A stretch of DNA of 64,000 nt. Origin: Deltaproteobacteria bacterium (lineage in GTDB: Bacteria; Myxococcota; B64-G9). The notes beneath the pieces were generated by a model that did no database searches, had not been told where the DNA came from, and worked only from the letters and a program-made list of their open reading frames with translations. The stretch lies in the NCBI GenBank assembly GCA_019307065.1, contig JAFDKH010000020.1:43097-107096 (forward strand), in the 5' to 3' direction. The translations under genes were made by a program, and so were the position numbers. This document shows positions 23,922-60,737 of the stretch, piece after piece (the first letter of the stretch is position 1; the number at the start of each line of letters is the position of its first letter).

Positions 23922-23924
23922 AGA

Positions 23925-36237: not shown

Positions 36238-36255
36238 CTAAAAAGGAGCTAGAAG

Positions 36256-42107: not shown

Positions 42108-42160
42108 TGACTCAATATGTCTCACCGATCAAGCCTGTCTCAAAAGGATCTCGTGAGACA
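42108..42160. promoter_or_regulatory. TGTCTCA UAS cluster
   Basis: TGACTCA 42108, TGTCTCA 42118, TGTCTCA-N11-TGAGACA 42136-42160. Confidence 0.7.
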
Positions 42161-42245
42161 CATCATCCGGCTCAATTTGCCGGCTTTCTTTGATAACTCA
42201 TCTAAATAACTGATCATTTTCTGCGGGATGATGGCAACTTGGAAC

Positions 42246-42261
42246 TGGCACCAACCTTGCG
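42246..42261 (+). promoter_or_regulatory. Sigma-54 promoter
   Basis: TGGCACCAACCTTGCG (GG-N10-GC). Confidence 0.78.
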
Positions 42262-42293
42262 TGGTCCAGTTATCGACCATGAAGGAGAAGAAA

Positions 42294-44501
42294 TTGTTCA
42301 GAATGAAATTAATAGTGACAACTTTTTTCGTCTCCGTATTTATTTCAGGAGGTGTCAGCATGACCTTCCAAGCATGTAAATCTAGCGTTACCACTAAGGT
42401 CCCAATTCAGCCGGCCGCCCCAGCAGATGTCAGGCGCACAACTGATGATATCAGGCGCAATGGCAACCAGCTTATAAACGAAAAGTCTCTCTATCTTCGA
42501 CAACACGCTCATAATCCAGTCGACTGGCATCCCTGGGGAACTCAGGCCCTCGATCGGGCACGCAACGAAGACAAACCGATATTTCTTTCAATCGGCTATT
42601 CCGCCTGCCATTGGTGCCATGTGATGGAGGCTGAAGTCTTCGAAAACGATGAAATCGCGGCTTTCCTCAATGCAAATTTCATTTCTATCAAAGTCGATCG
42701 TGAAGAACGCCCCGACCTCGACAAGGCCTACATGGAAGCCGTGGTTGCCATAACCGGCAGCGGCGGCTGGCCGATGTCGGTTTTTTTGACCCCTGAACAA
42801 AAACCGTTTTTCGGCGGCACCTATTTTCCGCGGGATCAGTTCATCCAGCTGACCGCCAGCCTTTTGGAGGCCTACAATAGTGAGCGCAAATTAGTGGTTT
42901 CGCAGGCTGAAAGACTCTACCAGCATGTTTCGGCCCAATTGCAGATTGAACCGGATTCAATCAAAGATGAATTGTTCGGGCAGGTTGTTTCACTTGCAAA
43001 AAAACGTATAGATCACAAATGGGGAGGATTCACCTCCCAAATGAAATTCCCTATGCCGGTCAATTGGCAATTCTTGCTCAGGTACTTGCGCAAGCAAGCT
43101 GATCCCGAACTCGAAAAAATCATCCGCTTGACGCTCGACCAGATGGCCTCGGGCGGTCTGCAAGACCATTTGGCTGGTGGGTTCTACCGCTATTGTACCG
43201 AACCAACCTGGCTGATTCCTCACTTCGAGAAAATGCTTTACGACAACGCACTCCTGGCGAACTTATACCTGGAAGCCGCAGTCGTTTTTGAAGATAAAAG
43301 CTATGCCGAAACCGGCCGAGCCACGCTTGATTTCTTACTCAAAGAGATGAGCGATCAAGCCGGCGGGTTCTATTCAAGTTTCGATGCCGACAGTGGTGGA
43401 GAAGAAGGCGCATTCTATTTATGGACTCCGGCTGAGATCGTGGAGGTGGCCGGCAAGCAAGACGGCCCGCCTCTGTCAGCGCTTTTCGGTGTTACGCCCC
43501 AAGGCAATTTCGAGAGCAAGAGCATACTCACCTTGAGAAGCAATCCCGCGGAACTGGCCAGACAATTTAATAGCGATGAAAAGCAAGTGGCTGGCCTTGT
43601 CGCCCGACACAAGCAAGCAATGCTTAAGTTCCGCCAAAAACGTATTGCGCCAGGTCTCGACCGCAAGATAATCACTTCCTGGAACGGTCTGGCAATTACC
43701 GCCTTGGCCCAGGCTTACCGTACACTCGGCGACGAACGCTACCTCAAGGCGGGCGAGAAAGCCGCGGCATTTCTATTGAGCGTGCATCGTAGACCGGACG
43801 GCGGGCTATTTCGGTCATCGAACAACAACGTCGCCGAGCACAATGCGATTCTAGACGACTATGCCTTTTTGTCTCGCGGCTTACTGGCCCTTTATCAGGC
43901 CACCGGCAAACAAGACTATTTGAAAAACTCTCTCGGGTTGATCGACTACACTATAAAAAACTTCAGCAACCCCAAAGGAGGCTTCTACCTGACAGCCGCC
44001 GATCAAAAAAACCCCCTTGGCCGGCAGTTCGAAGTCATTGATGGAGTTCGGCCATCCGGCAACTCGGCCATGCTCGAAGCTTTACTGATAGCCGGCACAA
44101 TCACCGGTCGCGAACAATACAGACAGCTTCTTCAGACCTCACTCGAAGCATACGCCAGGGCGTTGCAAGCTGCGGGGTTGGAAATGGCTGGCTGGCTCGA
44201 TGTCGCTCTACGCCTGAAAGGACCATTTTATAATGTGATCATTGCCGGCGATCTCGAGACGACCGCTACCCAAACACTGATAGGCGGACTACAACGCCTA
44301 AACCCTGCAGGCGTTGCTCTGGCCTTTGGACCGGCCGCTAACCCGTCTGCAGAAATGCTGGATCTGATACCTGCGCTTGCCGGAAAAAAAGCATTGCAAG
44401 GCAAGCCAACTGCCTTCGTCTGCAAACACGGTGTCTGCAAACAGCCGACTCATGATGCCGAAGTCCTCGAACGACAAGTTCTAACCGGTTGGAACAAATA
44501 G
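42294..44501 (+). CDS. Thioredoxin-domain DUF255/YyaL (SPATA20-like) protein with N-terminal signal
   Basis: [31 protein letters not shown]; start placed after the sigma-54 promoter and an AAGGAG RBS. Confidence 0.9.
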
Positions 44502-48397: not shown

Positions 48398-48491
48398 TGT
48401 CTCATTTAGATTGCCGGACATAGTTACATTTTTTCTAATACACTGTAACCACTTCAGTTATTGACATATTGCATTTGGCACACCACTTGCT
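48398..48491 (+). promoter_or_regulatory. Sigma-54 promoter with upstream TGTCTCA box
   Basis: TGTCTCA 48398; TGGCACACCACTTGCT 48476-48491. Confidence 0.8.
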
Positions 48492-48538
48492 TTGAACATT
48501 TCAAACAGTAACTTAGAAAACCTCAAAAGGAGAATGAA

Positions 48539-48979
48539 ATGTCCACTAAAGAACTTCAGGAAAAATTAGTCGATCAAATGAAAACCTGGCAAAAGATCGA
48601 AGACTCGGCGGTAGCCTCGACCAGCAAGATAATAAAAGAATCTCAAAATCCGTTGATTCAGTTGGTAATGGAAATCATCAAAGCCGATTCGCAGATGCAT
48701 CATCGAGTCCAGGAATTCATCGTCAGTATGTATGAGAAGCAGGCAGTTTCTTTGACGCCGGAAGAGATGGGTGAAGTCTGGGATAGTATCGAAAAGCACA
48801 TAGCGATTGAAAAGAAAATGGTCGCCTATGTCGATGATGCCCTTGAATCTCTGAAGGGCAAAAAGATGCTGGTACCTGAGTATCTCTTGACCTATCTGCG
48901 GTCTGACGAACAAAAGCACGACGATTTACTGGCCGGTCTCGAATACATCAAACGCGGGATGTACCCCTACTCATCCTGA
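48539..48979 (+). CDS. Ferritin-like four-helix protein
   Basis: IKADSQMH, HIAIE, SDEQKH di-iron-like pattern. Confidence 0.65.
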   Translation: MSTKELQEKLVDQMKTWQKIEDSAVASTSKIIKESQNPLIQLVMEIIKADSQMHHRVQEFIVSMYEKQAVSLTPEEMGEVWDSIEKHIAIEKKMVAYVDDALESLKGKKMLVPEYLLTYLRSDEQKHDDLLAGLEYIKRGMYPYSS

Positions 48980-49018
48980 CATGATTGAGAAGCCTGGCAG
49001 AGGAGGTATGAACAAAAC

Positions 49019-49525
49019 ATGGAACTAGAAAATGCAATCAAAACCGCCATAAGCTACGAAATCAAGATCCGCGACCTTTACCTCAAGAGCGTCGAAACCT
49101 GCCAGGATGATACCGGCTGTAAAGTCCTTCAGATCATGGCAGGCGAAGAACAAGATCATATTGATTACCTTGCGCTGATGCTCGAAGAATGGAAAGAGTC
49201 GGGCAAAATTACACCCAAAAAACTGAAATCAGCGATCCCATCAAAAACCAAGATTGCAAAAAGCGTTGCCAAGTTGAAAAAGAAATCGGCAGCCGAGCAA
49301 CTGTCCAGCGACCTCGATTTGTTGAAGCTTGCTCTTGAAATCGAAAAAGAAACCAGTGATTTCTATCGCCAAATGGTGAATTCTCTCAATGCCGCCGGAC
49401 AAGAGCTGTTCGAGCCGTTTGTCGAGATTGAAGACGGGCACGTAGCGATTGTCCAGGCCGAAATAGATAATCTCAGTGGCCTCGGCTTCTGGTTCGATTT
49501 CCAGGAGTTCGATCTCGAGGGATAA
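49019..49525 (+). CDS. Ferritin/rubrerythrin-like protein without a rubredoxin domain
   Basis: AISYE, EEQDH, ALEIE..FY, IEDGH. Confidence 0.85.
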   Translation: MELENAIKTAISYEIKIRDLYLKSVETCQDDTGCKVLQIMAGEEQDHIDYLALMLEEWKESGKITPKKLKSAIPSKTKIAKSVAKLKKKSAAEQLSSDLDLLKLALEIEKETSDFYRQMVNSLNAAGQELFEPFVEIEDGHVAIVQAEIDNLSGLGFWFDFQEFDLEG

Positions 49526-49548
49526 TGATAACTTTCAAGGAGACCGGT

Positions 49549-50061
49549 ATGGGCACGAATAATCAGGATATTATTAATGGCCTGCAACAGGCGATACAAA
49601 CCGAATCGTATGGCCACTATTTCTACAGTATGGCAGCCGCAACCATCGAAGACCAAAAAGGCAAAGAGATTTTTAAAACCCTGGCACAAGAAGAGCTGGC
49701 CCATATGCGCTTTTTGCAGGATCAGCATCAGTCTTTTGTTGAACAGGGCAAAGCCGACGACGCAGCCAGGTTAGGACCGCAGGCAGACCTGTCCGGTAGT
49801 AGTCCGATCTTCTCGACAGCTATCAAGAATCGAATTTCGACCGCTCACTTCGAGATGACTGCTTTGTCCGTCGCAATCAACTTAGAGTTGTCATCAGAAC
49901 AGTTTTATCGAAAACAATCCCAGGCAGCCTCCGACCCGACTGTGGCTAAATTTTTTATCGACTTAGCCGATTGGGAGTCGGGACATTATCATGCTCTGCT
50001 TCGTCAGCAGGAAGAGCTGAAGCAAGACTATTGGGCAGAGGCCGGTTTTGCACCCTCATGA
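49549..50061 (+). CDS. Ferritin/rubrerythrin-like protein
   Basis: AIQTE..FY, EELAH, AINLE..FY, WESGH. Confidence 0.85.
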   Translation: MGTNNQDIINGLQQAIQTESYGHYFYSMAAATIEDQKGKEIFKTLAQEELAHMRFLQDQHQSFVEQGKADDAARLGPQADLSGSSPIFSTAIKNRISTAHFEMTALSVAINLELSSEQFYRKQSQAASDPTVAKFFIDLADWESGHYHALLRQQEELKQDYWAEAGFAPS

Positions 50062-50078: not shown

Positions 50079-50164
50079 CGAGACAGTGAGACATTCTGGA
50101 CTTCCGCCTGTTTGGCTAATTTCCCGTAAAAACAAAAACTTATATTTATGGCACGAAGTTTGAA
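50079..50164 (+). promoter_or_regulatory. Probable sigma-54 promoter (variant -12) with tandem GAGACA boxes
   Basis: CGAGACAgTGAGACA 50079-50093; TGGCACGAAGTTTGAA 50149-50164 (GA replaces GC). Confidence 0.55.
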
Positions 50165-50203
50165 CCCTAGTATCGCGATTTGATACTTAGCGGAGGAATC
50201 TTC

Positions 50204-51385
50204 ATGTCGATAGACGTTTTCGGAATATTTGGGGCCGGACTACTGACCTTTGCCACTCCGTGTATATTACCGATGATCCCAATTTACCTTTCGGCCTTGA
50301 TCGGTGCGGATATTCGCAAGATCGACTCAGCTGCGCGGGGACAGCTTATTTTTCGAGCTCTGCTGTTTTCCGCCGGATTCATACTGGTTTTCACCTTGCT
50401 CGGTCTGGCGGTTTCCTCGGTGGGTGCCTTCTTGATTGCCAACAAAACAGTCATCCAGGCAATCGGTGCCCTCATAATTCTGTTGTTCGGATTGAAGTTC
50501 GTTGGCTTGATAAACATCACCTGGCTGGACCGATTGATCCGCGCGGACGACAGAAAACTGCAGACTCGTTTCGGGGGAATCAATGCCTTCTTCATGGGTA
50601 TTGTGTTCGCGGCCGGCTGGTCGCCCTGTGCCGGCCCGGTTCTGGGCTCGGTCCTGACTTACACTGCCTCGGCCACATCCGATCCTCTGACCGGCGCATT
50701 TTACTTGAGTGTCTACGGATTTGGCTTCGCCCTGCCGCTGCTTTTAGTGGCCGCCTTCGCAGAGGCCGGCTCGCGTCTGCTGAAACGGATGGGTCCCAGC
50801 CTGGGTAAGGTCGAGCGCGTGATCGGCATCCTGATGATAATTGTGGCCGGGTCGCTAGCCGCCGATGTGATCAGCCAACAGTCGGTTAGTGCACCTGACT
50901 CGGTCGGGACCACCGAGAAAAATGTAGACGCAGGAGTTTTGGCAAAACCGACCATGCTAGTGCTAACTTCTAGTGAATGTTCGATCTGTCGACAAATGGA
51001 GCCGATCGTCAAGGGCATAACCAGCCTGTGCGACGGCCAGGGCGTAATTATCAAAGAATATGATCTGGCCCAGCCAGCCAACCGTCCGCTGATTACGAAA
51101 TATAAACTGGTGGCAACTCCCACTTTCGTGTTCCTGGATGCGAAAAGAAACGAAGTAGCTCGATTGGTGGGCCAACAAACCGATAACACGCTCAAACAAG
51201 CACTATCGGCACTGCGGGGCGTCCCCTGTCCCGGTCTGAAGCTACTCCAAAAAGATCAAGCCGGAGAGGATGCTAGCGGTGATATCTCGTGCCAAATGAC
51301 TACTTTTGTCAGTAGAACCCAAAAATCTACAGTCTCAGGAGTCGAGACCGTCGGCAGCTGCCAGACAGAAAAGAGGACCCCATGA
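50204..51385 (+). CDS. ccdA: CcdA/DsbD-type membrane disulfide transporter fused to a thioredoxin
   Basis: TPCILPMIP, WSPCAGP; C-terminal CSIC..TPTFVF. Confidence 0.88.
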   Translation: MSIDVFGIFGAGLLTFATPCILPMIPIYLSALIGADIRKIDSAARGQLIFRALLFSAGFILVFTLLGLAVSSVGAFLIANKTVIQAIGALIILLFGLKFVGLINITWLDRLIRADDRKLQTRFGGINAFFMGIVFAAGWSPCAGPVLGSVLTYTASATSDPLTGAFYLSVYGFGFALPLLLVAAFAEAGSRLLKRMGPSLGKVERVIGILMIIVAGSLAADVISQQSVSAPDSVGTTEKNVDAGVLAKPTMLVLTSSECSICRQMEPIVKGITSLCDGQGVIIKEYDLAQPANRPLITKYKLVATPTFVFLDAKRNEVARLVGQQTDNTLKQALSALRGVPCPGLKLLQKDQAGEDASGDISCQMTTFVSRTQKSTVSGVETVGSCQTEKRTP

Positions 51386-51612
51386 AAGAATTTGAATATG
51401 AAATAACTCAACATACTAGTAATGAGTTTCAGACCCTGGCCTTTGTCTGTTCCAACTCGGGAGAATGTCGCCAAGAGCAGATTACCGGCAGCGAACTAGA
51501 AATCCTGACTGAAAAATTGAATAGTCGTGGAAAACAAGGCTGGGAATTGATACAAATCAGCTTTCGGGAAGAGATAGTTGTTGCCTTTTGGAAACGTGAA
51601 CGTTCTTCGTAG
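51382..51612 (+). CDS. DUF4177-like small protein
   Basis: FEYE..LNSRGKQGWELIQ..FWKRE. Confidence 0.7.
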   Translation: MKEFEYEITQHTSNEFQTLAFVCSNSGECRQEQITGSELEILTEKLNSRGKQGWELIQISFREEIVVAFWKRERSS

Positions 51613-51655
51613 GCTGTAGGCTATGCGATAATAGATAGCCCAAAGGAGGCAGAAG

Positions 51656-52171
51656 ATGGACTACCTAGAGTCAATAGAGTTGGCAATGCGAAACGAAAAG
51701 AGCGAGATGGAGTTCTACCTCAATGAGGCCTCGCGATCCAAAAATGAATTAGCGAAAAAGATGTTCACCACGTTGGCCAATGACGAAAAGGAACACATGC
51801 AGCGAATCAAGAAATTGCATGACAGACTCGTGGCTGAAGGCAGCTGGCCCGCAGATGTGCCGATCCATGTCGCTGGCACCGACATCAAGCAGGTTCTAGA
51901 CAACCTGGCGACAAATGTCGGCTCGCAGGCTAACCATGACGATGACGACATTCGTGCACTCAAGAAAGCAGCCGAGTTCGAAAGCAAAGGCGCCGCCTTT
52001 TACAAAGACATAGCCCAGGCATGTGACAACCAAATGGAAAAGAATTTCTTCGAATTTCTGGCTGGAATAGAAAGAGAGCACCAGCTGTCGATCATGGATT
52101 CGCTGGCCTTTTTGGAGGATCCAGAAACCTGGATGATGCAGCACGAACGCTCGGGCCTCGACGGAGCCTGA
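51656..52171 (+). CDS. Ferritin/rubrerythrin-like protein
   Basis: AMRNE..FY, DEKEH, AEFE..FY, IEREH. Confidence 0.87.
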   Translation: MDYLESIELAMRNEKSEMEFYLNEASRSKNELAKKMFTTLANDEKEHMQRIKKLHDRLVAEGSWPADVPIHVAGTDIKQVLDNLATNVGSQANHDDDDIRALKKAAEFESKGAAFYKDIAQACDNQMEKNFFEFLAGIEREHQLSIMDSLAFLEDPETWMMQHERSGLDGA

Positions 52172-52186
52172 GGAAAGAAAAATCGC

Positions 52187-52438
52187 ATGTCAAAACAAGT
52201 TAAATTGTTTGCCATCAGCACCTGTGGCTGGTGCAAAAAAGTAAAACGATTTCTCAAAGACAATGATATCGAATATGAATGCTGTGATGTCGATCTTCTC
52301 GGTGATGCTGAAAAGAACCAGGTTCGTGAAGAAGTTGCAAAACTGAACCCCAGAAAAACCTATCCAACCCTGGTAGTCGACGATATCGTTATAGTCGGCT
52401 ACGACGAAGATCGTATGCGCGAGGTTCTGGATAGCTGA
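52187..52438 (+). CDS. Glutaredoxin-like protein (NrdH/Grx)
   Basis: STCGWC, TYPTL, IVGYD. Confidence 0.88.
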   Translation: MSKQVKLFAISTCGWCKKVKRFLKDNDIEYECCDVDLLGDAEKNQVREEVAKLNPRKTYPTLVVDDIVIVGYDEDRMREVLDS

Positions 52439-52476: not shown

Positions 52477-52527
52477 CGAGACACATGAGACAGTTAGCTT
52501 GTCATAAATGAGACAACATGCTATTTC
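52477..52527 (+). promoter_or_regulatory. Sigma-70-like promoter of the activator gene, overlapped by three GAGACA boxes
   Basis: TTGTCA(52499)-N17-TATTTC with extended TG; CGAGACA 52477, TGAGACA 52486 and 52509. Confidence 0.6.
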
Positions 52528-52554
52528 TGCAGCTCATTTGGGAGGATTTGCATA

Positions 52555-54396
52555 TTGGGATCTAAACAGAAAGTGTTGTTCTTATGCGGCGGAAATGCGT
52601 GTCGCAGCCAAATGGCTGAGGGATTCTTGCGGTCGAAAAAAACCAAAGATTTGAGCGTGTTTAGCGCAGGAATTCGAGCTGATGGGCTTCACCCTCTGGC
52701 AGTCAAGGTTATGCACGAAGTCAATATTGACATTTCAGGCCATACATCCAAATCAGTCGCCGACTTGGGACCCCAGAGTTTTGACCTGATAATCACGCTC
52801 TGCAACGAAGCTTCCGCCTACTGTAAAAATTATGAGCCCGACAGTAAAGCCTCCGAAACGACGAGCCGCAGCACGGAAAAAATGCCGATCTTTGTCGGTA
52901 TGCCAACTCATCTACACTGGGCGGTGCCAGATCCGGCCGAAGTTCAGGGCAACGACCAGGAAATTATTGAATCATTCCGCTCAACCCGTGACCAAATAAA
53001 AAACAAACTGGATAGCATGCTGGACCTCGAATATCTATCCAGCTTGACAAATCAACGCGCGCTGACAGAAAAGATATTGGACACCCTTGAGGACGGCCTG
53101 CTTCTGCACGACGAACATAGAAACATATTCCTCTTCAATTTCGCCGCCGAGAAAATCACGGGGTACAGCCGAGATGAGGTACTGGGCGCCAATTGTCATG
53201 AGATTTTTCAACCAGGTGGTTTGTGCGGTTCAAAGTGTCCGCTGATACATGGTGACTTTGAAAGCTATACCGGCTGTCAGTATGAAGTACCCTTCAGAAC
53301 TAAAGACGGTGAGGATCGCCGTCTGATGATCCGCTCAAATCCTGTGCAATTGCTTCAAGACGGTACTCGTGGTATTGCCGCCACTATCCGGGATGTCACC
53401 GAAGTAAATAAGCTACGCTTTCGAATGAACGAAAAGCACAGTTTTCATGGCATGGTGGGCCATTCAAAAGCCATGCAGGACGTATTTCGGATTATCCGCC
53501 AGATCACCACCTCCGATTACCCTGTACTGATCACCGGTGATAGCGGCACCGGCAAAGAACTGGTCGCTCACGCCATTCACAACGAAAGCCGCCGAAGCCA
53601 GGGGCCTTTCGTGCCGATCAACTGCGGGGCTTTGCCGGAGAACATCTTAGAAAGCGAACTCTTCGGACATGTCAGGGGGGCCTTTACCGGCGCTATTCGA
53701 GACAAGAAAGGCCGCTTCGAATTGGCCCATAAAGGCACCATAATGCTGGACGAATTGGGAGAACTAAGCCTGGCCTTCCAGGTCAAGCTCCTGAGAGTAC
53801 TCGAACAAAAAAGTTTCGAGCCGGTCGGCGGTGAGCGTACCATAAAAGTCGATGTTCGCGTGATCAGCGCCACAAACCAAGACTTGAAAAAAATGATATC
53901 CGCCGGAAAATTCCGCGACGATTTGTTTTACAGGCTAAGTGTTGTGCCGATCCACTTGCCTCCCTTGAGAGAACGCAAGGAGGATCTGCCGCCGTTGGTC
54001 GAACTGATACTTAAGAACATTCGCAAAGAAAGCGCTAAAGAAATCAATAATGTATCAGGTGAGGTGCTTGACATGTTCCTGACCTATAATTGGCCGGGTA
54101 ACATCCGCGAGCTGATCAACATCCTGCAGTTTGCATCGGTCAGATGCGACTCGAAACAGATTTCAGCCGAACATTTGCCGCCCGAAATCCGAAATCAAAA
54201 GTCGTTAACATCTGGTGCGCGTATATCTCAACCCGACGTCAGTGAATATAGGCCTCAACGACGAAAAAGACTCAGTCGCGAAATGGTCGCCCAGGCGCTA
54301 GAAGAGGCAGGCGGCAACAAAGTCAAGGCAGCCAAACTCTTAGGAGTTGGTCGGGCAACTTTGTATCGTTTCCTCGACAAACAGCCTGTCTCATAG
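52555..54396 (+). CDS. Sigma-54 activator with ArsC/LMW-PTP, PAS, AAA+ and HTH domains
   Basis: CGGNACRSQMAE, TLC..C and PDPA (ArsC); FNFAAEKITGY..C-x9-C-x3-C (PAS); GDSGTGKE, GAFTGA, WPGNIREL; Fis HTH. Confidence 0.92.
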   Translation: MGSKQKVLFLCGGNACRSQMAEGFLRSKKTKDLSVFSAGIRADGLHPLAVKVMHEVNIDISGHTSKSVADLGPQSFDLIITLCNEASAYCKNYEPDSKASETTSRSTEKMPIFVGMPTHLHWAVPDPAEVQGNDQEIIESFRSTRDQIKNKLDSMLDLEYLSSLTNQRALTEKILDTLEDGLLLHDEHRNIFLFNFAAEKITGYSRDEVLGANCHEIFQPGGLCGSKCPLIHGDFESYTGCQYEVPFRTKDGEDRRLMIRSNPVQLLQDGTRGIAATIRDVTEVNKLRFRMNEKHSFHGMVGHSKAMQDVFRIIRQITTSDYPVLITGDSGTGKELVAHAIHNESRRSQGPFVPINCGALPENILESELFGHVRGAFTGAIRDKKGRFELAHKGTIMLDELGELSLAFQVKLLRVLEQKSFEPVGGERTIKVDVRVISATNQDLKKMISAGKFRDDLFYRLSVVPIHLPPLRERKEDLPPLVELILKNIRKESAKEINNVSGEVLDMFLTYNWPGNIRELINILQFASVRCDSKQISAEHLPPEIRNQKSLTSGARISQPDVSEYRPQRRKRLSREMVAQALEEAGGNKVKAAKLLGVGRATLYRFLDKQPVS

Positions 54397-54501
54397 TGTC
54401 TCGTCTGCGCCAATTTGTGTAGCTGGTAATTTTCTATTTGTTCTCTAATCGTTGAAAACACTACATTTCTTATCGACTTCCTGAATGGCACGCTCTTTGC
54501 G
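54387..54501 (+). promoter_or_regulatory. Sigma-54 promoter with tandem TGTCTC boxes
   Basis: TGTCTCAtagTGTCTCG 54387-54403; TGGCACGCTCTTTGCG 54486-54501. Confidence 0.85.
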
Positions 54502-54547
54502 AAGTTACAAATAAAATATGCTTGACTTGCCAAGAAAAGGTAATAGT

Positions 54548-54748
54548 TTGAAAGCTCTTAATGATAATTTAGTCAGAATTTTGAAGCTTACGCGAGAGAT
54601 GTTGGCATTGTCGGATGAGGGGGATAGGGATCGGGATGATTCGTCGTGTGGGATAATTTACGGCATCCTGAGAGACACCGGCTACAAGCTTCGAAAACTG
54701 GCCGAAGAGGAGTGCGACAAACACAAGAAATTGGGCAAATGGAACTAG
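54548..54748 (+). CDS. Small conserved hypothetical protein
   Basis: DEGD..R.DSSCGIIYG.LRD..YKL; first gene after the sigma-54 promoter. Start uncertain (54518 is possible). Confidence 0.7.
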   Translation: MKALNDNLVRILKLTREMLALSDEGDRDRDDSSCGIIYGILRDTGYKLRKLAEEECDKHKKLGKWN

Positions 54749-54785: not shown

Positions 54786-55361
54786 ATGCCAAGTGTAAAA
54801 GGAACTCAAACAGAAAAAAACCTGCTGACTGCTTTTTCGGGTGAGTCTCAGGCCCGAAATCGATACACCTATTTCGCCAGTAAGGCAAAAAAAGACGGTT
54901 TTGTTCAAATTTCCAAGATCTTCGAAGAAACCGCCAACCAGGAAAAAGAGCATGCCAAACGGCTTTTTAAGTATCTAGAGGGTGGTGAGTTAGAGATTAC
55001 CGGTAGTTTTCCGGCCGGAGTAATCGGTCCTACTGTTGATAACTTAAAAGGATCGGCCGCCGGCGAGCATTACGAGCACACCGAGATGTATCCTCAGTTC
55101 GCCAAAGTAGCCCGTGATGAAGGTTTTGGCGAAATTGCCACAGTCTTCGAGTCCATCGCCGTAGCAGAGAAACAGCATGAAAAGCGCTACCTGGACCTGG
55201 CCGCCAACATTGAGGCCGATAGGGTGTTCAAGCGCCCAGAAAAAGTCGTTTGGCGCTGCCAAAACTGTGGTTACATCCTTGAAAGCAACTCTGCTCCCGA
55301 GAAATGTCCGGCCTGCGATCATCCCCAGGCTCATTTCGAATTGTTGGCAGAGAATTATTAG
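54786..55361 (+). CDS. rbr: Rubrerythrin
   Basis: GESQARNRY, EKEHA, EKQHE, CQNCGY..CPAC. Confidence 0.96.
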   Translation: MPSVKGTQTEKNLLTAFSGESQARNRYTYFASKAKKDGFVQISKIFEETANQEKEHAKRLFKYLEGGELEITGSFPAGVIGPTVDNLKGSAAGEHYEHTEMYPQFAKVARDEGFGEIATVFESIAVAEKQHEKRYLDLAANIEADRVFKRPEKVVWRCQNCGYILESNSAPEKCPACDHPQAHFELLAENY

Positions 55362-55387
55362 TCAAACAGAGACAAGGGAGCCCCGTC

Positions 55388-55843
55388 ATGGAAAATTTCA
55401 AATCTTTAGACGCATTGTACGACTTCGCAATCGGTGAAGAGGAAGCAGCCGCAAAATTTTATCGCGAAATCGCCGGCAAATTGGATCGGGCCTGGATGCG
55501 CGAGACCTTCGAGCAGTTTGCCCGTGAAGAGGATGGACATAAGGCCAAGTTGCTCAAAATGAAGAGCGGCGACATTCCAGCCCTATCGCAAGAAAAAATC
55601 CTCGATCTTAAAATCGGCGATTACCTGGTCGATATCGAAACAAACGCCGATATGGACTACCAGGACGCCCTGATTGTGGCCATGAAGAAAGAAAAGGCCG
55701 CCTTCAAGATGTACACAACTCTGGCAGGCCTGGCTGATAATGAGCAAGCTAAGGAATTGCTCCTGTCATTGGCTCAGGAAGAAGCCAAGCACAAACTGCG
55801 CTTTGAGATCGAGTACGATGATGTAATTCTGAAAGAGAATTGA
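55388..55843 (+). CDS. Ferritin/rubrerythrin-like protein
   Basis: AIGEE..FY, EEDGH, AMKKE, EEAKH. Confidence 0.88.
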   Translation: MENFKSLDALYDFAIGEEEAAAKFYREIAGKLDRAWMRETFEQFAREEDGHKAKLLKMKSGDIPALSQEKILDLKIGDYLVDIETNADMDYQDALIVAMKKEKAAFKMYTTLAGLADNEQAKELLLSLAQEEAKHKLRFEIEYDDVILKEN

Positions 55844-55873: not shown

Positions 55874-56248
55874 ATGACTGAAAAACTACAAATCTATAAA
55901 TGTGAAATCTGTGGGAACATCGTCGAAATGCTGCATGCCGGCCAGGGTGAACTGGTCTGCTGTGGTCAACCGATGAAGCTGTATACCGAGAACACAGTCG
56001 ATGCAGCCAAAGAAAAACACGTGCCGCTCGTTGAAAAAACCGCCTCGGGCTACAAGGTAACCGTGGGCAGCGTCGAGCACCCCATGGAAGACAAACACTG
56101 GATCGAGTGGATCGAATTGATCGCCGGCGGCAAAGCCTATCGCCAGTTCCTGAATCCCGGGGACAAACCGCAGGCGGCTTTCGACGTCCAGGCGGACCAG
56201 ATCACCGTTCGCGAGTACTGCAATCTGCATGGATTGTGGAAAACCTGA
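55874..56248 (+). CDS. dfx: Desulfoferrodoxin (superoxide reductase)
   Basis: CEICG..CCGQ, EKHVP, HPM..HWI, CNLHG. Confidence 0.96.
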
Positions 56249-56278: not shown

Positions 56279-56440
56279 ATGAAAAAATATGTCTGCGATG
56301 TTTGCGGTTATGTCTACGATCCCGATGCTGGCGATCCCGATAATGGCGTAGCTGCCGGCACAGCCTTCGAAGACATTCCCAACGACTGGGTATGCCCAAT
56401 GTGCGGTGCCGACAAGGATTCTTTTTCACCCCAAGACTAA
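56279..56440 (+). CDS. rub: Rubredoxin (not in the ORF track)
   Basis: AAGGAG RBS; [26 protein letters not shown]. Confidence 0.95.
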
Positions 56441-56476: not shown

Positions 56477-56591
56477 TGTCTCATAGTGTCTCATCCTGGT
56501 TGAATGGCATATCCGAAACATTCCAATCCACTCTTACCTGACTGAAAACACGTCCCTTTTCTCCCATCTTCTATATGGCACACTCTTTGCT
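56477..56591 (+). promoter_or_regulatory. Sigma-54 promoter with tandem TGTCTCA boxes
   Basis: TGTCTCAtagTGTCTCA 56477-56493; TGGCACACTCTTTGCT 56576-56591. Confidence 0.85.
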
Positions 56592-56845: not shown

Positions 56846-57490
56846 ATGGGTACCAGCCGAAAAAAAGCCTTACAGATACTGCATGATCGCGACTTAGCCG
56901 CATTGCTGTCCTGGACCAGCAACACGCGCAGCTCACTGCGAACACTATTTTCGCTAAGCTATTCAGAAGATGATTTGATAGGCTGGCGGGCCATTGAAGG
57001 CATCGGCATAGCTGCCATGCAAATCGCAAAAAGCGATCTCGAGATGGTCAAGGACTTCTTGCGCCGGCTTTTCTGGCTGATGAACGACGAGTCCGGCGGT
57101 CTGAGCCGGCGAGCCCCCGAGGTCATCGGCGAGATTCTCTTCGGGCTGCCTTCTCTGATAAGTGAGTTTGGAATTCTTTTGTTTCACTTCACCAGGGAGG
57201 AACCCTTCGAGAGAGGGTCGTTTTCCGCCCTGGCCAGAATCTCATCCAGGGCACCGGAGCTGATCGAGGAAAACCGTGAAATCTTTCTTTCTGCTCTGGA
57301 TGACCCCGATCCAGCCATCCGTGTTTATGCGCTGACGGCTCTCTCAACAGTCGAGACCGGTCTTGTTGCCCAACAAGTTGAAAAGTTGTTAAATGACCAC
57401 GCGCTCGTAGCCACCTATGACTTCCCAACTGGCAAGATAATTGAGACAACAGTCGCAGGGTTTGCCAAGCAACTGGCAACTATCAAATGA
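56846..57490 (+). CDS. HEAT/ARM-repeat protein (DVU0298-like)
   Basis: WRAIE.IG, RRLFWLMNDESGG, APEVIGEI, LDDPDPAIR. Confidence 0.7.
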   Translation: MGTSRKKALQILHDRDLAALLSWTSNTRSSLRTLFSLSYSEDDLIGWRAIEGIGIAAMQIAKSDLEMVKDFLRRLFWLMNDESGGLSRRAPEVIGEILFGLPSLISEFGILLFHFTREEPFERGSFSALARISSRAPELIEENREIFLSALDDPDPAIRVYALTALSTVETGLVAQQVEKLLNDHALVATYDFPTGKIIETTVAGFAKQLATIK

Positions 57491-57499
57491 GGAACAGAC

Positions 57500-58306
57500 A
57501 TGCCCGAGCTACCTGAAGTCGAGACAACCGTGAGGACCTTCCGCCCCCTGGTCAAGGGTCGCCGCTTCGTTGGTTTCACCTCAAGCTGGCCCCGCCAGGT
57601 TATCCCATCGGCCCCCAAGGTAGACCGGGCTATAAGCGGTCGAAAAATCGTCAAACTCGAACGACGCGCCAAACAGATAATCTTTCACCTGGACGACGAC
57701 AGCGGCCTGTTGATTCACTTGAAAATGAGCGGACGCCTGGACTGGCTGGCTAGCTCAGGTGATCGAGCCCGCCATGTCCGGGCTCGATTCCGTTTATCGG
57801 GCGGCGATACCCTGCTCTTTTGTGACGCACGAAAGTTCGGGCGTATCAGACATGTCGCCGATCCTCAGGCTGCTCTGGCTCATTTGGGGCCCGAGCCGCT
57901 CGATCCGGCCTTCGACTCAAAGATCCTGGCTGAAATCCTGCACAGTCGAAAAAGGCGGATCAAACCCTTGCTGCTCGATCAAACCGTGATCGCCGGACTG
58001 GGCAACATTTACAGCGACGAGTCTCTTCACCGGGCGAACATTCATCCCTTGAGTCTGTCAAACCGGCTGTGCTGGGACGAAATCAAACGCTTGCATCGTT
58101 CCATTCGCCAGGTGCTGCGTGAGGGCATCAAACGTTGTGGCACCTCATTCGACTGGGCCTATTTAGGCGGCCGCATGCAACATTATCTGAGAGTCTATCA
58201 GCGCGGCGGCAAAGCCTGCCTGGCTTGTGGTCGCCCAATAGAGGTCATTCGGGTTGGCCAGCGCTCGACTCATTTTTGCCCCAAGTGCCAGAAAATCTGC
58301 AAATAA
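57500..58306 (+). CDS. mutM: Formamidopyrimidine-DNA glycosylase
   Basis: MPELPEVET, HLKMSG, DARKFG, GLGNIY, zinc finger CLAC..CPKCQ. Confidence 0.95.
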   Translation: MPELPEVETTVRTFRPLVKGRRFVGFTSSWPRQVIPSAPKVDRAISGRKIVKLERRAKQIIFHLDDDSGLLIHLKMSGRLDWLASSGDRARHVRARFRLSGGDTLLFCDARKFGRIRHVADPQAALAHLGPEPLDPAFDSKILAEILHSRKRRIKPLLLDQTVIAGLGNIYSDESLHRANIHPLSLSNRLCWDEIKRLHRSIRQVLREGIKRCGTSFDWAYLGGRMQHYLRVYQRGGKACLACGRPIEVIRVGQRSTHFCPKCQKICK

Positions 58307-58363
58307 GCGAGTAGTCTCTGATACTATGCCTTTGATGTGGTCAATATAGGGGAACAGAATATT

Positions 58364-59035
58364 ATGAACATCCAGGCTGATGATCCTAAAGGTGCGATTC
58401 TTCAAAGAGACAAAAAAACCTACGCCATTGTTCCGCGAATTCCGGTGGGCCTGGTAAGCCCGGACGATCTGGAGAGAATTGCCCAGGTTGCGCGGAAGTA
58501 CGATATTCCGATTATCAAGATCGTTTCCGGGCTGAGGTTCGCCCTGGTAGGCATCAAGAAGGCGGACATCGATGCCGTCTGGAAAGATCTCGGCCTGGAC
58601 GTCGGCAGGGCCAAAACCACCGAGCTCTGTTTGCACTACGTCCAAGCTTGCCCGGGTACGGCCGTTTGCAAATTCGGCGTCCAGGATTCTCTGGGGCTGG
58701 GCCTGCAGCTGGAAAAGATATTTGCGGAAATGGAATTTACCGCCAAAGTCAAGATCGGCGTATCTGGCTGCCCGCTTTGCTGCAGCGAGAGCTTTGTCCG
58801 CGACATCGGCATGTTTGCCAAGAAAGCCGGTTGGACACTGATTGTCGGTGGAAGCTCCGCTCGGCGGCCCCGGATTGGCAACGTGCTGGCCGAGAACTTG
58901 TCCTCCGAAGAGGTCATCGGTCTGACCCGCAAAGTCTTAGACTACTACCAGAAAGAGGCCAAGAAAAAGGAACGCATGGCCCGCTTTGTCGACCGGATCG
59001 GAATTGACAATCTGAAAGAACTTATTCTCGCTTGA
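58364..59035 (+). CDS. Nitrite/sulfite reductase 4Fe-4S domain protein (small, single domain)
   Basis: AIVPRIPVG, ACPGTAVCKFG, KIGVSGCPLCC. Confidence 0.85.
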   Translation: MNIQADDPKGAILQRDKKTYAIVPRIPVGLVSPDDLERIAQVARKYDIPIIKIVSGLRFALVGIKKADIDAVWKDLGLDVGRAKTTELCLHYVQACPGTAVCKFGVQDSLGLGLQLEKIFAEMEFTAKVKIGVSGCPLCCSESFVRDIGMFAKKAGWTLIVGGSSARRPRIGNVLAENLSSEEVIGLTRKVLDYYQKEAKKKERMARFVDRIGIDNLKELILA

Positions 59036-59067
59036 TTTAATATTTCAGTTGTTTGAAGGAGGGAAAA

Positions 59068-59541
59068 ATGAGTGAAACAGATATCGCTAAAGTCTTGAAG
59101 AAGATCCCTTACCCGGTCTCGGTAGTTACCGTGGGAACAGGTGGTGCGGAAAACGGGCTGACTATTTCCTGGCTGAGCCAGGTCTCGTTCGATCCGCCCT
59201 TGATAATGTTCGCGATCGACAAAAACCATTACAGCAATCTTCCACTGGGCTCACAGAGCTTCGTGGTGAACTTGCTAAAGGATGACCAGAGTCACATTGC
59301 CGGTCATTTTGCCGGTCAGAGCATGGAGGGTGAAAACAAGATCGACAAGTTCCCTACCCGCGAAGCCGGTAGCGGCAGCCTGATTCTTACCGAAGCCCTG
59401 GCTTTTCTCGACTGCGAAGTTGAAAAAACCATCGAGGCGGGAGGCCACACGTTGGTTATCGGTAAGATCATCGATGCCGGGGTGCTCAACGACGGTCAAC
59501 CACTGACTAGCGCTTCCGGCATGCGTTATCAGAAGAGCTAG
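59068..59541 (+). CDS. Flavin reductase-like protein
   Basis: SWLSQVSFDPP, FVVNLL, LDCEV..GGHTLVIG. Confidence 0.88.
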   Translation: MSETDIAKVLKKIPYPVSVVTVGTGGAENGLTISWLSQVSFDPPLIMFAIDKNHYSNLPLGSQSFVVNLLKDDQSHIAGHFAGQSMEGENKIDKFPTREAGSGSLILTEALAFLDCEVEKTIEAGGHTLVIGKIIDAGVLNDGQPLTSASGMRYQKS

Positions 59542-59552
59542 CGGAGGAAGAT

Positions 59553-60737
59553 GTGAACCCTAGAAAAATAACGGACAAGATTCACTGGTTGGGGGCAATT
59601 GATTGGGACCGCCGATTGTTCGATTCATTGATCCCGCTGCCCGACGGCACGAGTTACAACGCTTACTTGATAGAGGGCGAGGACAAGACAGTCCTGATCG
59701 ATAGCGTTGATCCCGCGATGAAACACATCTTGCTTACTCAACTCGAGAAAGTCTCCAAGATCGACTACGTCATCTCGCAGCATGCCGAGCAAGACCATTC
59801 CGGGACGATCCCGGCCGTCTTGGAGAAGTACCCCCAGGCGCAGGTCATTGTTTCCGACAAAGCTAAAAACATGCTCCTAGACCTGCTGACTATCTCTGAG
59901 GATTGCCTCAAGGTAGTCAAGGACGGTGAAACTCTCTCTCTGGGCGGCAAGACCCTGGAATTCATCTACACTCCCTGGGTGCACTGGCCCGAGACCATGA
60001 CGACCTATCTTAGAGAGGACAAGATTCTCTTCAGCTGCGATTTCTTCGGTTCCCACATCGCAACCAGCGATCTGTTCGTTCGCGACGAAGGTCGCGTGTT
60101 TGAAGCTGCCAAGCGCTACTTCGCCGAGATCATGCTGCCCTTCCGCAAGATTATCGCCAAGAACCTCGAGAAACTCTCAGCCTACGAGATCTCGATGATC
60201 GCCCCGAGCCACGGCCAGATCTACGACCGGCCGGCATTCATCCTGGATGCCTACCGCGACTGGGTTCTCGGTGAACCCAAGAACCTGGTAGTCCTGCCGT
60301 ATGTGTCAATGCACGCAAGTACCAAAAAGATGGTCGACTACCTGACAAATGCCTTGATCGAGTTGGGGGTCGCTGTCGAACTGTACGACTTGACGGTGAC
60401 CGACATCGGCAAATTGGCAATCAGCCTGATTGACGCCGGCACGCTTGTAATCGGCACCCCGACGGTCTTGGCCGGCCCGCACCCGGCTGCCGCCTATGCA
60501 GCCTTTTTAGCCAACGCGCTGCGGCCCAAGGCCAAGTTTCTTTCGATCATCGGCTCATATGGCTGGGGCGGCAAGACTGTCGAGACCCTGGCCGGTATGA
60601 TCCCCAATCTCAAGGTCGAAGTGCTCGAGCCTGTCTTGTGCAAAGGTGTACCAGGCAACGAAGCCCTGCAACGTCTCGACAGCCTGGCAAAAGCCATCGC
60701 GGCCAAGCACAAGGAAAACGACTTTCAAAATCGCTGA
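59553..60737 (+). CDS. fprA: Flavodiiron protein (FprA, O2/NO reductase)
   Basis: GTSYNAY, HAEQDH, VHWPE, SCDFFG, PSHG; flavodoxin domain GSYGWGG. Confidence 0.94.
   Translation: MNPRKITDKIHWLGAIDWDRRLFDSLIPLPDGTSYNAYLIEGEDKTVLIDSVDPAMKHILLTQLEKVSKIDYVISQHAEQDHSGTIPAVLEKYPQAQVIVSDKAKNMLLDLLTISEDCLKVVKDGETLSLGGKTLEFIYTPWVHWPETMTTYLREDKILFSCDFFGSHIATSDLFVRDEGRVFEAAKRYFAEIMLPFRKIIAKNLEKLSAYEISMIAPSHGQIYDRPAFILDAYRDWVLGEPKNLVVLPYVSMHASTKKMVDYLTNALIELGVAVELYDLTVTDIGKLAISLIDAGTLVIGTPTVLAGPHPAAAYAAFLANALRPKAKFLSIIGSYGWGGKTVETLAGMIPNLKVEVLEPVLCKGVPGNEALQRLDSLAKAIAAKHKENDFQNR

Follow-up and report, generated by a model that had tools for sequence, protein, structure and literature searches.

The gene described here encodes a bacterial sigma-54 enhancer-binding protein (EBP) in which a domain related to arsenate reductase (ArsC) precedes a PAS domain, and judging from its sequence and surroundings it sits within a sigma-54 regulon and probably turns on the oxygen-defence genes around it. 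We propose, with rather more belief than doubt, that this protein acts as an OrpR-like one-component sigma-54 activator of an oxygen and ROS defence regulon, and that its host is an anaerobic or microaerophilic Myxococcota/"Deltaproteobacteria"-like bacterium. The window, that is, the whole stretch of DNA analysed, is 64,000 nucleotides long, and the positions of its relevant features are collected in table 1.

The assignment as an EBP is based on a complete core with Walker A and B motifs and a GAFTGA loop, followed by an HTH_8 domain. The reading frame is open over 613 residues, and its TTG start lies 8 nt downstream of the ribosome-binding site GGGAGGA. Pfam recognizes LMWPc at residues 7-154 (E 2e-21; 77.1 bits against a gathering threshold of 23.2), PAS_9 at residues 180-283 (E 6e-12), Sigma54_activat (PF00158) at residues 300-467 (E 1e-71), AAA_lid_14 at residues 472-551, and HTH_8 at residues 573-605. 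The order LMWPc/ArsC-like, PAS, sigma-54 AAA+ and Fis-type HTH, which a sequence-only reading had proposed, is therefore confirmed within a single ORF. The GAFTGA and GxxGxGKE motifs and the GRATLYRF recognition region of the HTH are invariant in an alignment of 41 members, the best Foldseek matches of the protein are FleQ, ZraR and NtrC1, and its AlphaFold model is confident (pLDDT 81.9). Pfam finds no GAF domain in this protein; a separate GAF-type EBP is encoded at 3959-5449 of the same window. No Sigma54 factor domain (the rpoN product) was found among the window ORFs scanned with Pfam.

Table 1. Positions in the window of the EBP gene, its domains and motifs, and the candidate regulatory elements and targets.
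Feature	Position	Strand	Remarks
EBP gene, 613 aa	52555-54396	+	TTG start; RBS GGGAGGA at 52540-52546
LMWPc/ArsC-like domain, residues 7-154	52573-53016	+	Pfam and alignment to ArsC
P-loop C11-x5-R17-S18 (CGGNACRS)	52585-52608	+	within LMWPc domain
C83..C90 pair (LCNEASAYC)	52801-52824	+	within LMWPc domain
Insertion of ~22 residues, residues ~97-118	52843-52908	+	absent from ArsC; low confidence in model
PAS domain, residues 172-284	53068-53406	+	Cys triad C214/C224/C228 at 53194-53238
Sigma-54 AAA+ core and lid, residues 300-551	53452-54207	+	Walker A GDSGTGKE; Walker B DE 399-400
GAFTGA loop, residues 375-380	53677-53694	+	within AAA+ core
Fis-type HTH_8, residues 573-605	54271-54369	+	recognition region GRATLYRF
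Three GAGACA sites (52478, 52487, 52510)	52478-52515	+	in 116-bp gap 5' of EBP start
Tandem candidate enhancer site TGTCTCA-TAG-TGTCTC	54387-54403	+	overlaps EBP stop codon
Sigma-54 promoter TGGCACGCTCTTTGC	54486-54500	+	perfect -24/-12; between EBP and small gene
Conserved small helical-hairpin protein, 76 aa as ORF	54518-54748	+	likely start TTG 54548, 66 aa
Rubrerythrin	54786-55361	+
Ferritin-like protein	55385-55843	+
Desulfoferrodoxin	55874-56248	+
Rubredoxin	56279-56440	+
Second tandem site TGTCTCA-TAG-TGTCTCA	56477-56493	+	5' of promoter 56576
Sigma-54 promoter TGGCACACTCTTTGC	56576-56590	+	3' of second tandem site
DVU0298-family protein, Fpg, small NirB/SiR-like haem protein, flavin reductase, flavodiiron-type protein	56846-60737	+
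GAGACA-G-TGAGACA	50080-50093	+	5' of promoter 50149
Weaker promoter TGGCACGAAGTTTGA	50149-50163	+	-12 element TTGA, not TTGC
DsbD-thioredoxin, DUF4177, ferritin-like protein, glutaredoxin	within 50080-52438	+	directly 5' of EBP
Glutaredoxin (Grx)	52187-52438	+	adjoins EBP
Single TGTCTCA (48398) and perfect promoter	48476-48490 (promoter)	+	5' of unknown 146-aa protein gene
Unknown 146-aa protein and two ferritin-like proteins	within 48398-50061	+
TGTCTCA (42118) and inverted TGTCTCA-N11-TGAGACA	42136-42160 (inverted)	+	perfect promoter 42246-42260; 5' of DUF255 gene
DUF255 thioredoxin-domain protein	within 42118-44501	+	real start probably ATG 42279
Ferritin	41477-42013	-	divergent from DUF255 gene
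TGTCTCA (35097) and promoter TGGCATAGCCCTTGC	35174-35188 (promoter)	+	one mismatch; 5' of ArsS cluster
ArsS radical-SAM, DedA-like, FAD disulfide oxidoreductase, two "arsenosugar" glycosyltransferases	within 35097-39750	+	ArsS cluster from 35225
CGTCTCA-G-TGTCTCA-N12-TGAGACA	about 22891-22925	-	5' of promoter AGGCACGCTCCTTGC
Promoter AGGCACGCTCCTTGC	22783-22797	-	one mismatch; 5' of standalone ArsC-like LMWPc
Standalone ArsC-like LMWPc	22321-22767	-	element 22321-22925

The fusion is not an artefact of assembly, because PF01451, PAS and PF00158 occur together in 113 of the 120 best database clusters, which are 49-87% identical to the protein over near full length. Of the 17 related genome loci, 15 also have an LMWPc tblastn match directly 5' of the one to PAS. 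At 50% clustering, a single stretch spans LMWPc and PAS in 21 of the 150 best representatives, and LMWPc was matched in six of eight divergent EBP-like representatives tested; an assembly chimera was therefore ruled out. The ArsC-PAS EBP family is common in uncultured bacteria. The earlier description of the architecture as "unusual" holds against characterized EBPs but not in sequence databases, where it forms a sizeable family. We found no publication on an LMWPc plus Sigma54_activat architecture, or on an arsenate reductase plus PAS sigma-54 EBP, in a search with thin coverage of subscription journals. The titles and abstract openings returned for sigma-54, rubrerythrin, EBP and oxidative stress likewise held nothing on this family, and the words rubrerythrin, arsenate and phosphatase were absent from the searchable text of Kazakov 2015 (PMC4641369) and of a 2025 survey of sigma-54 regulons (PMC12316311).

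It is the PAS Cys triad, rather than the ArsC tetrad, that is constant in the aligned family. The predicted C-x9-C-x3-C motif corresponds to C214/C224/C228, and 119 of the 120 homologues have retained all three cysteines; the spacing is 9/3 in 117 of them and 8/3 in two, a conservation beyond what would be expected by chance. H185 and D186 are present in all 120 sequences, D280 in 118 and H215 in 109; a fourth PAS cysteine, C241, is poorly conserved (Cys in 12 of 120). Solved structures in the PDB gave generic PAS matches only, the best with an E value of 1e-4, and it is the Cys motif alone that suggests that this domain may bind an Fe-S cluster.

The ArsC-like domain has a more varied history. 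The C-x5-R loop CGGNACRS (C11..R17-S18) and the Cys pair LCNEASAYC (C83..C90) are both present as had been claimed, and in phmmer alignments C11/R17/C83/C90/D126 correspond to C10/R16/C82/C89/D105 of the ArsC proteins of Bacillus subtilis (1jl3; E 1.4e-25) and pI258 (1ljl), where D126, the counterpart of the ArsC acid D105, is followed by P127. With NCBIfam TIGR02691 the domain scores 119.5 bits, below the equivalog cutoff of 174.3, and the insertion after the redox helix is family-specific. Among the 99 family members with a complete N-terminus the tetrad is intact in 61, although domain identity is only 27-53%, and lost in 38, with 16 state changes on the best tree and at least eight on supported branches. 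R17 is already missing from P0016, a close relative at 58% identity. Where the tetrad has been lost, D77, W122, P127 and the LMWPc domain itself are retained; joint loss of C11 and C83, looked for as a mark of two residues that work together, did not reach significance (sign test, p about 0.25). Purifying selection acts on LMWPc in the close loci L002-L004, where its dN/dS is 0.21-0.30, versus 0.13-0.21 for PAS and 0.07-0.16 for AAA+. With 38 of 99 members lacking an intact tetrad and at least eight changes of state, thiol sensing cannot be essential to the family. The earlier proposal of a dual-input sensor thus survives in part: the ArsC catalytic residues and the PAS triad are indeed present, but a strict dual-input design is not the core mechanism of the family, because the ArsC cysteines are dispensable. 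We suggest that this domain would serve as an accessory input through its thiols and would not sense arsenate.

The evidence for a regulon lies in the distribution of promoters and repeats. The window contains four perfect -24/-12 promoters (TGGCAC-N5-TTGC) against 0.23 expected, a number reached in none of 100 shuffles, and 21 copies of TGTCTCA against 7.9 expected, with as many in none of 100 shuffles; 14 of these 21 copies fall in eight regulatory gaps. The TGTCTCA sites, whose repeats are inverted or follow in tandem at a 10-bp period, precede seven of the eight candidate sigma-54 promoters at about -50 to -170, and GTCTC/GAGAC occurs 15 times at -170 to -50 of the eight compared with a mean of 1.76 (0 of 10,000 random sets). 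The only candidate promoter without TGTCTCA sites (5553) adjoins the different, GAF-type EBP. We assign the sites to the EBP by co-localization; a different regulator might be what binds them. The GAGACA sites 5' of the EBP gene are candidate autoregulatory sites. The candidate TGTCTCA enhancer sites and the conserved small downstream protein were both missing from the sequence-only reading.

Related loci repeat much of this arrangement. A genome scan with a five-sequence PAS alignment yielded 18 loci, all of them in MAGs and the source genome not among them; they are a biased sample because the scan recovers only relatives that share two peptide patterns. One of these (L018) was rejected as a family member because only its AAA+ region matched, and 17 remain. 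Neighbouring genes were read by tblastn with the proteins of the window instead of from ORF calls, since ORF calling is unreliable in high-GC loci. In 12 of the 17 family loci the fetched flanks contain homologues of oxygen-defence genes, and 10 of the 11 loci that possess the small gene have a sigma-54 promoter separating it from the EBP. The arrangement of EBP stop, UAS and promoter was found in L001-L006, with the tandem TGTCTCA pair at the EBP stop in L001-L005 and one site in L006; L016 and L017 have GAGAC clusters. TGTCTCA sites recur only in moderate-GC loci. In L008, L011, L012 and L013 the promoter is present and the TGTCTCA pair was not found, and in L007, L010 and L015 neither promoter, small gene nor defence genes were found. 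Site pairs like GAGACA upstream of the EBP start also occur in L001, L005, L014 and L016, and the ferritin/DUF255 pair with GTCTC..GAGAC sites also occurs in L002-L004.

Based on these findings, we propose that the EBP would bind the TGTCTCA repeats through its invariant HTH and, once bound, would remodel sigma-54 RNA polymerase at the promoters of the regulon. The genes driven would be those for rubrerythrins, ferritin-like proteins, desulfoferrodoxin, rubredoxin, flavodiiron protein, Fpg, glutaredoxin, DsbD-Trx and the DUF255 thioredoxin-domain protein. The primary sensor would be the PAS domain, in which Cys214/Cys224/Cys228, with H185/D186/H215 near in sequence, may ligate a redox- or O2-labile Fe-S cluster. 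Given that the targets are oxygen-defence genes, the holo or reduced sensor is predicted to keep the ATPase off, and oxidation or loss of the cluster would free it. The most speculative step is that the ArsC-like domain, with its full relay of C11, C83, C90, R17 and D126, may provide a second, thiol-based input. Peroxide or disulfide stress would oxidize Cys11, the disulfide would move to C83-C90 and the redox helix would rearrange, and the regulon's own Grx/Trx-type reductants could then reset the relay as in the OxyR-GrxA loop; in members lacking the ArsC cysteines the domain would stay as a structural or regulatory module. We regard as unlikely the most elaborate version, in which the family would govern oxygen defence as a master two-key switch across uncultured anaerobic Myxococcota and their "Deltaproteobacteria" relatives. 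The Fe-S PAS would read O2 or redox potential, a catalytically competent ArsC relay co-opted from an enzyme would read peroxide or disulfide stress, the regulon's Grx/Trx would provide the reset, and the invariant 66-aa hairpin, as the first product of the promoter beside the EBP, would be a third, feedback part.

A simpler account, which we consider possible if somewhat doubtful, is that PAS is the sole sensor and that the ArsC-like domain is a pseudo-enzyme acting as a scaffold that dimerizes or inhibits the AAA+ ring, with cysteines left over from its ancestor that have no part in signalling. Repeated loss of the tetrad while the domain and D77, W122 and P127 are retained, the missing R17 of P0016, the ArsC score below cutoff and the family-specific insertion all fit this account; the survival of all four residues in 61 of 99 members at such low domain identity, and the dN/dS of the LMWPc domain, speak against it. 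Cysteines that are not under selection are seldom kept as well as in these 61 members.

If instead the ArsC domain bound or turned over arsenate (or phosphate or sulfate), its disulfide or occupancy could switch on arsenic genes (22321, 35225) along with stress genes. All of the ArsC catalytic residues are present, and sigma-54 promoters with TGTCTCA sites do precede the standalone ArsC-like gene and the ArsS/"arsenosugar" cluster (ArsS 375 bits against a cutoff of 300), which are possible outlying targets of the EBP. The joint target set of arsC/arsS and oxidative-stress genes suggested earlier is to this extent upheld, as candidates throughout, but both arsenic-type targets lie 17-30 kb away, each promoter has one mismatch, and tblastn with the window's ArsS and its standalone ArsC-like protein gave no match beside the EBP in the 17 loci, where only oxygen-defence genes were found. 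Furthermore, no ArsB or Acr3-type (SBF) Pfam domain was found among the 70 window ORFs scanned, and the catalytic Cys is gone in a third of the family. The fold is all that speaks for oxyanion or arsenate sensing; what relatives conserve around the gene is oxygen defence, and we consider arsenate sensing highly improbable. A reversed polarity, in which the EBP would be active only when reduced or anoxic, maintaining a standing level of defence proteins and shutting off upon oxidation, matches the behaviour of OrpR, the only characterized 3-Cys PAS EBP (PMC8359166). We nonetheless think it quite unlikely, as switching off rubrerythrin, superoxide reductase, O2 reductase and DNA repair under oxygen would be physiologically implausible, and as the present protein differs from OrpR in its extra N-terminal domain, its targets and its DNA site. 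For the same three reasons the EBP is not an OrpR orthologue.

The proposed activator of oxygen defence nevertheless shares much with OrpR, being a one-component PAS-AAA+-HTH EBP whose gene is flanked by its own candidate sigma-54 targets. OrpR of Desulfovibrio vulgaris Hildenborough (DVU2106; PMC8359166) has a [4Fe-4S] cluster and C52/C61/C65 (C-x8-C-x3-C) in a PAS domain, and this domain controls the ATPase and not DNA binding; OrpR is active when reduced, and recognizes GGGCGYRTTTTGCGCCC with a regulon of two orp operons only. The likeness to OrpR suggested earlier is supported by near-equal Cys spacing, in a comparison with the published motif. Unlike in OrpR, where PAS is N-terminal, an LMWPc domain precedes it here; TGTCTCA repeats and oxygen-defence operons take the place of GGGCGYRTTTTGCGCCC and the orp operons, and the proposed polarity is opposite. 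PexR of Myxococcus xanthus (PMC12754779) is an H2O2-sensing sigma-54 EBP with a Zn/Fe-binding GAF domain, whose N-terminal sensor autoinhibits the ATPase and which binds dyad repeats and targets ahpC and katB. Both proteins are Myxococcota sigma-54 EBPs with defence targets and negative control of the ATPase, proposed in our case, and the dual repressor/activator role described for PexR could parallel the GAGACA sites upstream of the EBP's own gene; unlike PexR, the present EBP combines LMWPc with a three-Cys PAS and is associated with an anaerobe-type set of rubrerythrin, superoxide reductase and flavodiiron genes. NreB (PMC13478379) is a histidine kinase responding to sulfide or O2 whose PAS domain holds an Fe-S cluster through three conserved Cys (C-x2-C-x11-C) and a non-Cys ligand. 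The EBP resembles it in having three conserved PAS cysteines, with Fe-S binding putative here, and differs in Cys spacing and output, and significant sequence similarity is confined to the generic PAS N-terminus. The best structural relatives of EBP residues 1-160 are the ArsC proteins of Staphylococcus aureus pI258 (1ljl) and B. subtilis (1jl3), at E values of 1e-25 to 1e-20; unlike these thioredoxin-coupled enzymes, the EBP domain is fused to a transcription factor, carries the ~22-residue insertion and has a catalytic set that varies across the family.

Individual elements of the proposal have precedents. NorR is a sigma-54 EBP under negative control, and Spx uses an arsenate-reductase-family fold as a thiol redox switch in transcription, although its fold is the thioredoxin-type one of the other ArsC family (PF03960) and its binding partner is RNA polymerase alpha. 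OxyR, a LysR-type sigma-70 regulator, induces the glutaredoxin GrxA, which resets OxyR, and the adjacent grx gene is proposed to reset the EBP in like manner. The rubrerythrin, superoxide reductase and flavodiiron genes of anaerobes are usually described as regulated by PerR/Fur-type proteins or OxyR. The description of a sigma-54 route is recent, with PexR in 2025, and concerns ahpC/katB in an aerobe (PMC12754779). If our proposal is correct, a whole lineage of uncultured bacteria would wire anaerobe-type oxygen defence to sigma-54 through a sensor that joins an OrpR-like Fe-S PAS with a domain borrowed from arsenate reductase. This would be a second Fe-S PAS EBP, with an output logic opposite to that of OrpR. 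It would also be a case of an enzyme fold caught becoming a regulatory module, since some lineages have kept the catalytic residues and others no longer have them. The defined DNA site, the defined promoters and the highly conserved small protein offer testable material.

This small helical-hairpin protein (66-76 aa, unannotated) is encoded by the first gene of the operon 3' of the EBP and is the most constant neighbour of the EBP in the related loci. It matches no Pfam or NCBIfam family, the protein-atlas clusters that it matched were annotated only as "hypothetical," and a Foldseek search against the PDB returned nothing at E<=0.001. The hairpins of half-ferritin, sulerythrin and encapsulated ferritin match it at E>0.6, and we note these as a lead only.

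The protein encoded at 52555-54396 (+) is a sigma-54 enhancer-binding protein (EBP) of 613 residues with a TTG start and the sequence GGGAGGA 8 nt upstream. The sequence-only reading described an ArsC-like domain with a C-x5-R loop and a distal Cys pair, followed by a PAS domain with C-x9-C-x3-C, an AAA+ domain and an HTH, and the Pfam matches (table), the ArsC alignments and the PAS cysteines (C214, C224 and C228) agree with this description. The nearest NCBIfam models to the N-terminus are thioredoxin-type arsenate reductases, at 119.5 bits, which is below the curated cutoff of 174.3, and the best solved relatives are the ArsC proteins of B. subtilis (1jl3; E 1.4e-25) and S. aureus pI258 (1ljl). 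In alignments to these two, C11, R17, C83, C90 and D126 correspond to ArsC C10, R16, C82, C89 and D105. Unlike thioredoxin-type ArsC, the EBP carries an extra ~22 residues (97-118) past the redox helix, and AlphaFold models the protein confidently (pLDDT 81.9) except in this insertion.

The best 120 matches in a word-indexed homologue search were full-length relatives only (49-87% identity). By our reading of the result table, PF01451, PAS and PF00158 occur together in 113 of them, the exceptions being homologues P0061, P0068, P0081, P0086, P0093, P0098 and P0107, which rules out the possibility that the fusion is an assembly chimera without homologues. An exhaustive search with residues 1-290 gave 35 representatives at E<=1e-30; LMWPc and PAS were matched as a single continuous stretch in 21 of the best 150 representatives, mostly proteins of 586-657 residues, and LMWPc was still matched in six of eight divergent EBP-like representatives tested. 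Source names are generic only ("sigma 54-interacting transcriptional regulator", "PAS domain S-box protein").

When the 120 sequences are aligned with MAFFT, 119 have the Cys triad in their PAS domain; its spacing is 9/3 in 117, 8/3 in two and 10/3 in one. No sequence departs from H185 or D186, and 109 retain H215 and 118 retain D280. The ArsC P-loop columns are present in 99 rows, with 21 N-terminally short rows excluded: C11 is Cys in 71 of these (Ser in 17, Gly in 10, Asp in one) and R17 is Arg in 89. For the distal pair, Cys is found at residue 83 in 83 of 119 rows and at residue 90 in 92 of 117. On a FastTree tree built from columns past residue 160, which keeps the trait's own columns out, the intact/not-intact label of the C11/R17/C83/C90 tetrad changes 16 times, with good branch support for at least eight of the changes; joint loss of C11 and C83 did not reach significance. 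dN/dS in three close loci is 0.21-0.30 for LMWPc, 0.13-0.21 for PAS and 0.07-0.16 for AAA+, so the N-terminal domain is under selection, though less tightly than the other two. Given the near-invariant triad and the variable ArsC residues, the 3-Cys PAS domain is the family's invariant sensor candidate. The proposal of a dual-input sensor is partly supported and is qualified for the enzyme half, whose thiol chemistry is optional in the family (tetrad complete in 61/99) yet complete in the window's EBP.

Features of the EBP and of its surroundings (window positions, or EBP residues where stated)
Feature	Position	Remark
LMWPc	EBP residues 7-154	Pfam E 2e-21
PAS_9	EBP residues 180-283	Pfam
Sigma54_activat	EBP residues 300-467	Pfam E 1e-71
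AAA_lid_14, HTH_8		Pfam; C-terminal to Sigma54_activat
One-mismatch sigma-54 site	50149	5' of DsbD-Trx
One-mismatch sigma-54 site	35174	5' of ArsS cluster
One-mismatch sigma-54 site	22797 (-)	5' of standalone ArsC-like gene
Tandem element CCTGTCTCATAGTGTCTC	54383 and 56473	identical at both; first overlaps EBP stop codon
Inverted TGTCTCA-N11/12-TGAGACA	42136 and near 22900	
GAGACA-G-TGAGACA	50080	
Single TGTCTCA	48398 and 35097	
Ferritin-like and rubrerythrin proteins	49019, 49525, 51656, 54786, 55385	
DsbD-thioredoxin	50180	
Glutaredoxin	52187	
Desulfoferrodoxin	55874	
Rubredoxin	56279-56440	
DVU0298-family protein, Fpg, small sirohaem-type protein, flavin reductase, flavodiiron-type protein	56846-60737	
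Ferritin and DUF255 thioredoxin-domain protein	41477-44501	further upstream of EBP

The EBP gene sits amid oxygen-defence genes. Perfect TGGCAC-N5-TTGC promoters occur four times in the window (42246, 48476, 54486, 56576) against 0.23 expected, a number reached in 0/100 shuffles, and TGTCTCA-type repeats lie 5' of all seven promoters, these four and the three with one mismatch. TGTCTCA itself has 21 copies against 7.9 expected (0/100 shuffles reach 21), and 14 of these fall within eight regulatory gaps, including three GAGACA just 5' of the EBP start. Furthermore, GTCTC/GAGAC occurs 15 times in the -170 to -50 regions of eight candidate promoters against a mean of 1.76, and 0/10000 random sets reach 15. 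The last EBP codons (Pro-Val-Ser-stop) are the first half of the tandem candidate enhancer (54387-54403), so coding sequence and cis-element overlap; the C-terminal PVS is kept in close relatives. Around 42228-42281, the perfect promoter at 42246 falls inside the DUF255 protein's longest ORF, and the true start is therefore probably the in-frame ATG at 42279.

A single genome scan gave 18 loci, all from MAGs labelled Myxococcota, Myxococcales, "Deltaproteobacteria", Oligoflexia or Pseudomonadota; L018 was rejected as a family member, leaving 17. An LMWPc-like N-terminus was matched by tblastn in 15. L007 and L010 have none, with which Pfam concurs, and carry ~200 unassigned N-terminal residues in its place; small gene, promoter and nearby defence genes were not found in these two loci, which are closely related and too few for an association test. 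In 12/17 loci the fetched flanks contain homologues of the window's defence genes; none were found in those of L007, L009, L010, L014 and L015 (L009 and L014 being truncated or short). Among L001-L006, Pfam also identifies cytochrome bd oxidase, NifU/NifS and FTR-like/rubredoxin fusions. The oxidase is in the EBP-downstream operon of L002 (12196-14576) and L004 (12828-15196), and the NifU/NifS Fe-S assembly genes in that of L005 (11740-13796), a gene content consistent with O2 scavenging and cluster repair. L001-L005 have the tandem GTCTC pair at the EBP stop codon, L006 has one site, and the high-GC L008, L011, L012 and L013 lack the pair; the predicted enhancer assignment thus holds only within the window's subclade.

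Of all neighbours, a homologue of the small protein of ORF 54518-54748 is the most constant, lying directly 3' of the EBP in 11 (L001-L006, L008, L011-L013, L016) of the 14 loci with downstream DNA. A sigma-54-type promoter separates the two genes in 10/11, and the small gene is always first after it. The small protein, likely started at TTG 54548 (length 66-76 aa), is conserved more strongly than the EBP. Its 97 database clusters, mostly 66-70 aa and 59-82% identical, are all named "hypothetical" and match no Pfam family, nor has the window ORF an NCBIfam family. Invariant residues include D33, G35, D36, R37, D38, R39, D41, C44, G45, E65 and H69, with the core EGDRDRxDxxCG...E...H. The protein is modelled with confidence as a helical hairpin (pLDDT 89), for which structure comparison gave no significant match.

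According to PMC8359166, the Desulfovibrio vulgaris PAS-EBP OrpR, which has C52/C61/C65, binds a [4Fe-4S]2+ cluster convertible to [3Fe-4S]1+, the ATPase rather than DNA binding is under PAS control, and OrpR is active in the reduced state. PMC12754779 describes PexR, a Myxococcus xanthus EBP autoinhibited by a metal-binding GAF domain until H2O2 frees the metal. The window's EBP appears to have an OrpR-like sensor and a new N-terminal domain, candidate DNA site and putative regulon; in the literature searched, no paper described the LMWPc+PAS+sigma-54 architecture or its putative oxygen-defence regulon. Combining both precedents with the anatomy of the EBP, the best-supported reading is a putative redox- or O2-sensing activator of oxygen defence. 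Beyond the architecture, residue conservation, promoters, motif enrichment and synteny, which the sequences show directly, we hypothesize that an Fe-S PAS domain would restrain the AAA+ ring until oxidised, that TGTCTCA repeats would be the binding sites, and that the ArsC-like domain most plausibly would add a thiol-disulfide input, which adjacent Grx/Trx-type proteins would reset. Equally, given the repeated degeneration of its residues in the family, the ArsC-like domain may serve chiefly as a structural regulatory module. Arsenate sensing is the least supported alternative: the scanned window ORFs gave no arsenite-pump domain, and in the 17 loci neither the ArsS nor the ArsC-like gene reappears next to the EBP. 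The suggestion that arsC and arsS are targets retains the one-mismatch promoters with TGTCTCA at both, but not a place beside the EBP in related loci.

A fusion of ferredoxin-thioredoxin-reductase (FTR)-like catalytic and rubredoxin-like domains is encoded at 39812-40309 (+) and, in L001, L003, L004 and L005, immediately 5' of the EBP; it adjoins glutaredoxin and EBP in relatives and could serve to reduce the proposed thiol switch. The ArsS cluster (35174-39750, +) is an arsenosugar biosynthesis cluster per NCBIfam, with ArsS and the TIGR04283 and TIGR04282 glycosyltransferases all above cutoff, and also encodes a DedA-like protein and an FAD disulfide oxidoreductase behind its sigma-54-like promoter with TGTCTCA. 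The standalone ArsC-like LMWPc (within 21550-24272) is 35% identical to the EBP domain; this gene and a 4Fe-4S protein gene follow a sigma-54-like promoter with an inverted TGTCTCA repeat, and a PAS-GGDEF protein and an ArsR/BigR-like regulator are divergent to it. A second EBP (3959-5449, -) has GAF, AAA+ and HTH domains and is NorR/PrdR-like, below cutoffs. It adjoins a one-mismatch sigma-54 promoter (5553-5567, +), the sole one of the eight candidates with no GTCTC/GAGAC at -170 to -50, and, judged by its architecture, is a possible PexR-like regulator.
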